Source: a virus (Duplodnaviria > Caudoviricetes). From it: DNA of 64,000 bases. This document shows positions 29,443 through 30,134 of this stretch, piece by piece. The DNA lies in IMG/VR virus record IMGVR_UViG_3300005805_000070, positions 14,857 through 78,856 of that record; one strand, 5' to 3'. The notes beneath the pieces were generated by a model that was not told where the DNA came from, made no database searches, and saw only the letters and a list, made by a program, of their open reading frames with translations. Within the stretch, counting starts at the first letter, position 1. Each line of letters starts with the position of its first letter. A program made the position numbers and the translations under genes.

Positions 29443-29517
29443 TAGCGGTGGCGAGATTCGAACTCGCACTGTATTGATTTTAAGTCAACTGCCTGCTGCC
29501 GATTGGGCTACACCGCC
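29443..29517 (-). tRNA. trnL-UAA: tRNA-Leu(UAA), short variable loop, no encoded CCA
   Basis: Acceptor GGCGGTG/CACCGCT-A; anticodon arm GTTGA-CT TAA AA-TCAAT; T arm GCGAG-TTCGAAT-CTCGC. Confidence 0.9.
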
Positions 29518-29555: not shown

Positions 29556-29556
29556 G

Positions 29557-29629
29557 TGCCCGTTGCGTGGATCGAACACGCCTAAATTCGATTATGAGTC
29601 GAGTCCTTTCACCAGATAGGTAAACGGGC
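29557..29629 (-). tRNA. tRNA with CAU anticodon (elongator Met or lysidine-type Ile2)
   Basis: Acceptor GCCCGTT/AACGGGC-A; TCGA-CT CAT AA-TCGA; T arm GCGTG-TTCGATC-CACGC; lacks initiator features. Confidence 0.85.
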
Positions 29630-29632
29630 AGG

Positions 29633-29720
29633 TACGAGTGCCTGGATTCGAACCAGGTCAAAGCCGCTAATCTGGCGGAAAGAGTTTATAAGACTCCTCT
29701 GACTACCAAGTCTCACTCGC
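29633..29720 (-). tRNA. atypical tRNA(-like) RNA with UAU anticodon and long variable arm
   Basis: Acceptor GCGAGTG/CACTCGT-A; T arm CCTGG-TTCGAAT-CCAGG; GGAGT-CT TAT AA-ACTCT; extra hairpin CCGC/GCGG; reduced D arm. Confidence 0.75.
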
Positions 29721-29728
29721 TTCTGCGT

Positions 29729-29902
29729 TTATGATGCTTCGTTATTACACTCAGTGTGTATTCGTACAAAGTCATCATCCGCAGGTATCATAACTGCTGC
29801 CTGCCCATTCTCGTTGATTATACCTAATCGCTCTCCGTTCTCAACACGTTCCATCAGTTCATCAAACCTCTCTTGAAATTCTTCCACCGTGAAAACTTCC
29901 AT
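29729..29902 (-). CDS. Phd/YefM-like antitoxin-fold protein, 57 aa
   Basis: Manual translation MEVFTVEEFQERFDELMERVENGERLGIINENGQAAVMIP... follows the Phd beta-alpha-alpha-beta-beta pattern. Confidence 0.65.
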   Translation of the reverse strand: MEVFTVEEFQERFDELMERVENGERLGIINENGQAAVMIPADDDFVRIHTECNNEAS

Positions 29903-29917: not shown

Positions 29918-29925
29918 TATTTATA
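29918..29925 (-). promoter_or_regulatory. T4 late promoter (exact TATAAATA)
   Basis: TATAAATA 16 nt upstream of 29902; overlaps a TATAAT. Confidence 0.7.
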
Positions 29926-29933
29926 TTATAGCA

Positions 29934-30134
29934 TCACTCGCCGTAAATGGCAAGATCAGCATACTCAATCTGTTCAGGGTCAAGTTGAGCAGTGACAACT
30001 TCCAGTACGTTCATAAACTCTTCAACAGTATCACATTCAACCAGGCGCTCATTACCTTCATCACTAATCAGTAGGAAAGTACGAGTACAAACATCAATTA
30101 CAATACCCAGTACGCTTTCTTGTGTGATGCTCAT
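29934..30134 (-). CDS. hypothetical phage protein, 66 aa
   Basis: ORF track; directly after a consensus promoter. Confidence 0.75.
   Translation of the reverse strand: MSITQESVLGIVIDVCTRTFLLISDEGNERLVECDTVEEFMNVLEVVTAQLDPEQIEYADLAIYGE

Follow-up and report, generated by a model that had tools for sequence, protein, structure and literature searches.

We analysed a window of 64,000 nucleotides taken from a freshwater cyanophage-like virus record (a contig of 78.9 kb with 37.7% G+C), whose nearest isolates are the Synechococcus phages S-SRM01 and S-SKS1. The minus strand of the window carries three tRNA genes in the order UAU, CAU and UAA, and these are the sole tRNAs of the contig. Here we are mainly concerned with the first of them, tRNA(UAU), for which a window coordinate equals 29721 minus the RNA position i. 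The features of the locus are as follows:

29925..29953, minus strand: promoter-like site TTGCCA-17-TATAAT with TG, identified by consensus match only, upstream of the Phd-like reading frame and the tRNAs
29902..29729, minus strand: Phd-like open reading frame of 57 aa just upstream of the tRNAs, named "Phd-like antitoxin" in S-SKS1
29720..29633, minus strand: tRNA(UAU), 88 nt, from G1 (29720) to the discriminator A73 (29633), defined by ARAGORN, fold and covariation
29714..29720 with 29634-29640, minus strand: acceptor stem GCGAGUG/CACUCGU, 7 bp, with a G1.U72 wobble
29701..29712, minus strand: mini D arm GACU-UGGU-AGUC, 4 bp and a 4-nt loop, preceded by the single linker nucleotide A8
29679..29699, minus strand: anticodon arm with the loop CUUAUAA, 1 nt after the D arm, its stem extendable to 7 bp
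29690..29688, minus strand: anticodon UAU, which reads AUA and is constant on this scaffold
29678..29664, minus strand: extra hairpin CCGC-CAGAUUA-GCGG, with GAU (29672..29670) at loop positions 3-5
29658..29663, minus strand: CUUUGA, the 6 nt between the extra hairpin and the T stem
29641..29657, minus strand: T arm CCUGG-UUCGAAU-CCAGG
29556..29629, minus strand: tRNA(CAU), called Met by its anticodon (ARAGORN; Rfam, 48.7 bits)
29443..29517, minus strand: tRNA(UAA), 75 nt, of class I size with no long arm (ARAGORN; Rfam, 60.1 bits)

The original prediction for this locus was of a non-canonical tRNA that combines a UAU anticodon with a reduced D arm and an additional arm, and all of these elements are present on the minus strand. 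Each of the finer details given with it was also found, including the textbook acceptor and T arms, the one-nucleotide linker, the mini D arm and the anticodon stem that can be extended to 7 bp. ARAGORN called the gene as tRNA-Ile(tat) at 29631-29720. No match to tRNA(UAU) was reported in the window with the general Rfam tRNA model (RF00005), and the best match within the Rfam clan was to tRNA-Sec (RF01852), at 29.7 bits against a gathering score of 47. Among the features of a canonical tRNA, the 7-bp acceptor stem, the 5-bp T stem, a T loop of the UUCRANY type, the 7-nt anticodon loop, U33 and a purine at position 37 are all present, while those that failed are the two linker nucleotides (8 and 9), of which there is one here, the D loop of 7-11 nt, which is reduced to 4 nt, and the Rfam score. 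The gene does not encode CCA; CCU comes next and is followed by the second tRNA gene. The minimum-free-energy fold of the RNA corresponds exactly to the cloverleaf, with a free energy of -31.1 kcal/mol (z = -2.48) that was equalled by 4 of 200 shuffled sequences.

The order UAU-CAU-UAA recurs in many phage contigs, and the Phd-like reading frame likewise adjoins the tRNA cluster in many contigs (62 tblastn matches). In S-SRM01 the UAU and CAU tRNAs are separated by an inserted HNH endonuclease gene (L002 1819-2238). The tRNA(CAU) could be a lysidine-type tRNA-Ile2, as has been proposed for T4-like phages (PMC1524935), in which case the phage would carry two decoders of AUA. The tRNA(UAA) of the window bears a Leu anticodon and has a 5-nt variable loop, G1.U72 and A73. 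Short tRNA(UAA) of 73-78 nt, represented by 27 distinct sequences, are widespread in phage clusters, where they lie beside normal tRNA-Leu(UAA) of 82-88 nt, and UUA codons remain Leu-like, with 44% of their partner codons being Leu. In addition to the window tRNA(UAA), G1.U72 is also found in the normal tRNA-Ile(UAU) and tRNA-Leu(UAA) of phage S-PM2 (L001), and is a recurrent trait of cyanophages.

Covariation and distribution of the tRNA(UAU) family

The check proposed together with the original prediction, namely a search for phage homologues followed by a covariation test, gave a positive result, with support for five helices in an alignment of 55 distinct homologues of the mini-D-arm type. 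In this alignment, 99.5% of the cells were paired and both sides had changed in 19 of the 28 pairs. The covariation score was 0.576 compared to 0.150 in shuffles, none of 500 shuffles reached this value, and slid partners scored 0.10 or less. Doubly compensated pairs were present in all five helices, those of the mini D arm and the extra hairpin among them. Changes on both sides occurred at every one of the seven acceptor pairs, double compensation was seen at four of the five pairs of the T stem, and two pairs of the mini D stem were doubly compensated in a subgroup of 12 sequences with GAAC-AGGU-GUUC in this place. In the anticodon stem the four inner pairs covary and the three outer ones (G.U/A-U/G.U) are invariant. 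The G1.U72 wobble was kept in 52 of the 55 homologues and A73 was constant throughout (55/55). We conclude that the window tRNA(UAU) is almost certainly a real and selected RNA of the tRNA family.

The alternative helix that had been suggested between GUCAGAG and CUUUGAC fared less well. The two segments are complementary in the window, but the outer pair is unpaired in 43 of the 55 homologues and the rest of the helix shows no real covariation; in addition, this fold competes with the D stem, which itself covaries. We also rejected a relationship to the tRNA-like domain of tmRNA. That domain has a D loop with no stem and a reading frame for the tag, and it lacks an anticodon arm, whereas here ARAGORN found no tmRNA, the anticodon arm and the D stem both covary, and the alternative helix is unsupported.

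Pattern scans of IMG/VR, in which family counts refer to the matches listed only and are hence lower bounds, revealed at least 197 viral loci that carry a tRNA(UAU) with a GAU hairpin, comprising at least 114 distinct sequences. S-SRM01 has an identical copy, and in the S-SKS1 copy the stems of the acceptor, the extra hairpin and the T arm have undergone compensated changes; neither copy is annotated in its record. A relative from an Acinetobacter phage, which was found by BLAST and not by pattern, has the hairpin loop CAGAUAA. The UAU anticodon is invariant on this scaffold, and three scans that looked for this scaffold with a changed base at position 34, 35 or 36 returned only one degenerate copy, itself still UAU. 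In this copy (L168 6127-6215), which is likely a pseudogene, the anticodon stem has gained one base and the T arm is disrupted.

A second body type combines the same extra hairpin with a normal D arm (4-bp stem and 7-nt loop) and two linker nucleotides. In these relatives the hairpin starts 2 nt past the anticodon stem and is followed by an ordinary 5-nt variable loop, such that hairpin and T stem are 5 nt apart in 54 of 56 sequences; in the mini-D-arm type, CUUUGA occupies the place of this loop. Related cyanophages such as S-PM2 also have tRNA(UAU) with no hairpin, which is sometimes found in the same cluster as a hairpin-bearing copy.

The family extends to cellular genomes. A scan of prokaryotes, using one genome per species, gave 70 matches, 49 of which were confirmed as GAU-hairpin tRNA(UAU). 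These 49 loci belong mostly to Acidobacteriota (Pyrinomonadaceae, Blastocatellia), with few in Alphaproteobacteria and other groups, and where examined they lie in dense tRNA arrays of up to 24 tRNAs in 8 kb. In Pyrinomonadaceae arrays (L294 1-8000; L335), a tRNA-Ile(GAU) is found beside the hairpin-bearing tRNA(UAU). The dense arrays of this group may be mobile or phage-derived. A search for conserved chromosomal neighbours at the acidobacterial loci found none, the flanks being genes for penicillin amidase, HNH endonuclease, MacB/FtsX and radical SAM proteins; the HNH gene flanks the array at L308 (7505-7990). TilS scored above the curated cut-off in all five cellular carrier genomes tested, which rules out the idea that carriers lack TilS and indicates that in cells the tRNA(UAU) is an additional AUA-type tRNA and no replacement for TilS.

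Finally, metatranscriptome contigs from three studies contain the tRNA(UAU) at 100% identity (X17 and X18, and X16 in part), a match that speaks for presence in RNA libraries only, says nothing of ends, strand or level, and is open to DNA carry-over. The flanks of these contigs diverge from the window, indicating that they come from related phages, and uncovered flanks carry no meaning.

An extra hairpin of anticodon-arm dimensions

Across the family, the extra hairpin consists of 4-5 bp and a 7-nt loop, and is placed 2 nt past the anticodon stem and 5-6 nt ahead of the T stem. Positions 3-5 of its loop are invariably GAU in the hairpin-bearing family, and GAU is the anticodon of the major tRNA-Ile. 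We additionally ran a scan in which the hairpin was left unconstrained and only a fixed UAU loop, a long spacing and a common T loop were demanded, the mini-D-arm group being excluded. Among the matches listed were 65 distinct, ARAGORN-confirmed tRNA(UAU) with a long region between anticodon and T arms, and 56 of these listed 65 had a 7-nt hairpin loop with GAU at positions 3-5, while a 57th had the GAU loop UAGAUAA on a stem with a mismatch. The bases flanking GAU vary within the set of 56, with C or U at the position equivalent to 32, A, C or U at 33, any of U, A, G and C at 37, and A, U or G at 38. The bodies of the GAU-hairpin set fall into 10 clusters below about 80% identity, again among the matches listed. 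When the loop was left free in a scan of the mini-D-arm group, the matches listed showed loop changes only at 33 and 37. The remaining 8 of the 65 listed long-region tRNA(UAU) are without a GAU hairpin, and this minority has a small conserved element, CC-CUAACAA-GG, with the loop variants CUAGCAA, CUCGCAA and UGAACAA.

The extra arms of Leu, Ser and Tyr tRNAs from the same loci look different. In 198 parsed Leu/Ser/Tyr arms the loops were mostly 3-4 nt long (GNRA/UUCG type), compared to 7 nt in 103 of 120 long-region tRNA(UAU). A GAU-centred 7-nt loop was present in 100 of these 120 tRNA(UAU) and in none of the 198 Leu/Ser/Tyr arms, and the arm is separated from the T stem by 1-3 nt in the latter and by 5-6 nt in the former. 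With its 7-nt loop and 5-6-nt spacing, the RNA is a class I-type tRNA into which a hairpin with the dimensions of an anticodon arm has been inserted. The "long extra arm" noted from the sequence at the outset is therefore present as an extra arm, but the term is misleading in its class II sense, given that loop size and placement differ from those of Leu, Ser and Tyr tRNAs.

Other over-long tRNAs in the loci that are not Leu, Ser or Tyr (Thr, Lys, Pro and Trp) carry arms with ordinary tetraloops and show no motif resembling a second anticodon. The phage clusters contain tRNAs of class II size (83-88 nt, with tetraloop arms) that bear Thr(UGU), Lys, Pro, Trp and Asn anticodons, and which are candidates for Ser/Leu-type bodies with foreign anticodons.

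We also considered whether the hairpin loop could be held constant by pairing of its GAUU with AAUC in the T loop. However, positions 58-60 vary (AAU, AUU, UAA, AUA, ACC) while the hairpin loop is constant; the two loops do not covary, and internal pairing was rejected as the reason why the hairpin loop is conserved. A full-text search of the literature, in which the allo-tRNA(UAU) paper was covered by its main text, returned no description of a GAU-bearing extra arm on a tRNA(UAU).

Isoleucine identity and the reading of AUA

In the host, AUA is expected to be rare from the base composition, and on the contig AUA makes up 17% of Ile codons (248 codons). We aligned the contig proteins to homologous genes of the phage loci and counted which codons face AUA; AUU and AUC were the most frequent. 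The residue profile of AUA had a Jensen-Shannon divergence of 0.055 from that of AUU/AUC, compared to 0.090 for Val, 0.103 for Met, 0.139 for Leu and 0.447 for Ser. At 65% identity or more, the partners of AUA were Ile in 49% and Leu in 16% of cases, and essentially never Ser. AUA in these phages thus evolves as an Ile codon, unlike Leu or Ser codons. This leaves recoding to Ser or Leu unsupported, and means that the tRNA, if it translates, should carry Ile. The Ser or Leu recoding at AUA raised by the original prediction is accordingly at odds with the exchange of AUA like AUU/AUC, and the discriminator is A73 and not the G73 of Ser.

The bacterial Ile identity set comprises A73, C4-G69, U12-A23, D-loop bases, C29-G41, G or lysidine at 34, A35, U36, t6A37 and A38 (PMC9976931). 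In TilS-bearing bacteria, IleRS recognises G34 or lysidine-34; for the E. coli enzyme, charging of tRNA-Ile2 is about 360-fold poorer with a UAU anticodon than with LAU (lysidine), and the Trp behind this poor charging of U34 is conserved in tilS-bearing species (PMC3575796). In the window, the true anticodon loop has A35, U36, A37 and A38 together with U34, a poor determinant, whereas the extra hairpin has the equivalents of G34, A35, U36, A38 and C29-G41, but U37. In the hairpin, the counterpart of 29-41 is C-G in 54/56 and 55/55 sequences of the two hairpin-bearing sets, with variable neighbouring pairs. In the true anticodon stem, C29-G41 is found in only 8/56 and 9/55 of these hairpin-bearing tRNAs, the window tRNA having A-U, and it is present in 8 of 9 hairpin-less phage tRNA(UAU) of 73-75 nt, a small sample from few lineages. 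Judging from these sequences, it seems that the hairpin has taken over the C29-G41 identity pair from the true anticodon stem. Together, hairpin and A73 match the anticodon-branch part of the Ile set, with the exception of position 37.

We propose that the RNA is a functional, TilS-independent tRNA-Ile that decodes AUA and that would owe its identity to a mimic of the GAU anticodon arm carried in cis, a reading for which we consider the chances to be evenly balanced. In this model the UAU anticodon, being of the unmodified type, would read AUA on the ribosome, such that modification of the anticodon by host TilS would be unneeded. The extra hairpin would show host IleRS the G34-A35-U36 triplet in a 7-nt loop, A38 and C29-G41, to which the body would add A73, and charging by IleRS via the hairpin would leave the true anticodon arm free for the reading of AUA. 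Either hairpin could stack under the D stem, as each abuts one canonical junction. A UAU tRNA with a GAU arm of its own might in this way bypass both the dependence on TilS and the poor charging of U34. We infer the charging through the hairpin, as well as this geometry, from sequence comparison.

It is conceivable, although we hold this more tentatively and with the balance slightly against it, that the RNA has two alternative anticodon arms, with IleRS reading the GAU hairpin, the ribosome reading the UAU arm, and the junction stacking either. In the mini-D-arm group, an invariant GAG that follows the D stem has two possible partners, namely UUU, which makes the UAU arm 7 bp long, and the CUU beyond the hairpin. 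The GAG-CUU state lies 5 kcal/mol above the GAG-UUU state and would put the GAU hairpin in line under the D stem. Since neither GAG pairing covaries, the switching of arms stays hypothetical.

Several observations speak against the proposed model. The hairpin loop mostly has A at 33 and U at 37, and the latter implies that the hairpin has no t6A37, a strong determinant for bacterial IleRS. A hairpin of 4-5 bp branches from the core, which puts its reach to the anticodon-binding domain of IleRS in question. Related phages have tRNA(UAU) with no hairpin, indicating that the hairpin is dispensable or that the two tRNAs differ in role. In addition, U34 should misread AUG too, a point on which the model is silent, and TilS is present in the five cellular carriers tested.

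The same structural and codon evidence applies to a working AUA-decoding tRNA-Ile whose GAU hairpin serves another partner or purpose, for example as a handle for a U34/A37-modifying enzyme, a limiter of AUG misreading, a stabiliser of the core or a shield from tRNA-directed nucleases. A33 and U37 of the loop, which are poor IleRS features, as well as the hairpin-less tRNA(UAU) of related phages, speak for this explanation. We nevertheless regard it as rather unlikely, because it accounts neither for the invariance of GAU at 3-5 and of C-G at the 29-41 position over divergent bodies nor for the loss of C29-G41 from the true anticodon stem, and no co-occurring enzyme gene was noticed in an unsystematic look.

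A further alternative is that the RNA does not decode at all, and that it presents Ile-type loops as a decoy or sponge for IleRS, for an anticodon nuclease directed against tRNA-Ile or for another tRNA-sensing defence system or regulator. Two Ile-type loops on a single RNA, the unusual D arm, the failure of the Rfam tRNA model to find it and the joint presence of normal and hairpin-bearing tRNA(UAU) in some clusters are all consistent with such a role, as is the finding that six amber-recoded allo-tRNA(UAU) variants gave no reporter activity in E. coli (PMC5389517). In contrast, the acceptor stem, A73, the T arm and an anticodon loop of standard composition (C32, U33, A37, A38) are conserved as in a translating tRNA, the gene belongs to clusters that supply A/U-ending codons, and it occurs in cellular tRNA arrays too, making a pure decoy improbable.

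We consider it very improbable that the RNA is a mis-acylated recoding tRNA, recognised by LeuRS or SerRS via its long arm and leading to AUA being read partly as Leu or Ser. The long extra arm and A73, which is the Leu discriminator, would be compatible with this, and there are precedents in the nematode nev-tRNA-Ile(UAU), which is leucylated in vitro (PMC3333845, PMC4300185), and in allo-tRNAs. This idea conflicts, however, with the Ile-like substitution profile of AUA, in which Leu is the minor component and Ser essentially absent, with an arm that is unlike class II in loop length and placement, with a D arm that does not have the class II layout and with the lack of G73. That the gene is a decaying remnant, or was called in error by the tRNA finder, as the silence of the Rfam tRNA model, the missing annotation in S-SRM01 and S-SKS1 and the one degenerate copy might suggest, has next to no probability, being already contradicted by compensatory changes in every helix over 55 distinct sequences and by the identical sequence in metatranscriptome contigs of three studies.

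The solutions known for telling AUA from AUG are lysidine, agmatidine, pseudouridine and a changed IleRS. If charging through the GAU hairpin proves true, a tRNA that carries its own synthetase-recognition arm would be a new solution, and would give the phage an AUA decoder that requires neither host TilS nor a special IleRS. It would also be the first natural case in which an anticodon-arm mimic confers the amino-acid identity in cis, with synthetase and ribosome each inspecting a different anticodon. Such a tRNA could serve as a natural template for transplanting tRNA identity with the anticodon untouched, which would be useful in codon reassignment. The family further exposes a gap in annotation, as it is missed by the Rfam tRNA model and unannotated in two isolates, yet present in hundreds of viral contigs and in acidobacterial arrays. 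Because S-SRM01, S-SKS1 and their Synechococcus hosts are in culture, the model can be tested directly.

Comparison with known tRNAs

With the class II tRNAs (Leu, Ser and Tyr) and with tRNA-Sec, the tRNA(UAU) shares an extra stem-loop between the anticodon and T arms. Class II tRNAs have a short, unconstrained loop on an arm that ends 1-3 nt before the T stem, and a 3-bp D stem with a large loop. The tRNA(UAU) was not assigned to this class, as 6 nt follow its arm, the 7-nt loop is conserved and the D arm consists of 4 bp and a 4-nt loop. In tRNA-Sec, the acceptor/T branch has 13 bp, the D stem has 6 bp and the anticodon is UCA; here the branch has 12 bp, the anticodon is UAU and, as noted above, the match to the tRNA-Sec model stays below its gathering score.

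The allo-tRNA(UAU) described by Mukai et al. in 2017 come closer in appearance. They share a tRNA-Sec-like look, with a D stem closed by a tetraloop, a long anticodon stem and an extra arm, and they also share UAU as a predominant anticodon, an occurrence in Acidobacteria and phages, and a weak match to the tRNA-Sec model (PMC5389517). The defining features of allo-tRNAs, however, are an acceptor/T arrangement of 8/4 or 9/3 and, mostly, G73 or U73 with Ser identity (PMC5389517), whereas the window tRNA(UAU) is of the 7/5 type with covariation support, an eighth acceptor pair would be A.G, and A73 is invariant. The main text of that paper, on whose description this comparison is based, does not describe a GAU loop (PMC5389517). 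The nev-tRNA-Ile(UAU) similarly places UAU on a long-armed tRNA, but differs in being built on a eukaryotic tRNA-Leu body and in being leucylated in vitro (PMC3333845, PMC4300185).

The use of UAU for AUA has itself been described in bacteria, although tRNA-Ile(UAU) is still treated as a rare case in the literature of 2026 (PMC13752280). tRNA-Ile2/Ile3 with an unmodified UAU anticodon are known in Mycoplasma mobile, Bifidobacterium and Neorickettsia (PMC3575796). The tRNA of the Mycoplasma mobile type resembles the phage family in its lysidine-free UAU that reads AUA, in A73, in the loop CUUAUAA and in A37 and A38. It differs in being a class I tRNA of TilS-less bacteria in which IleRS itself has been altered (Arg865) to take U34 (PMC3575796), while the phage-family tRNA(UAU) has the extra GAU hairpin and occurs in phages and in genomes of TilS-bearing bacteria.

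Finally, T4-like phages usually supply a TilS-dependent CAU tRNA, the lysidine-type tRNA-Ile2 (PMC1524935). Like the tRNA(UAU), this is a decoder provided by the phage for AUA, which is a frequent codon of the phage. In the case of tRNA-Ile2(CAU), however, both codon and amino-acid specificity are converted by the TilS of the host, whereas the UAU route would bypass TilS.
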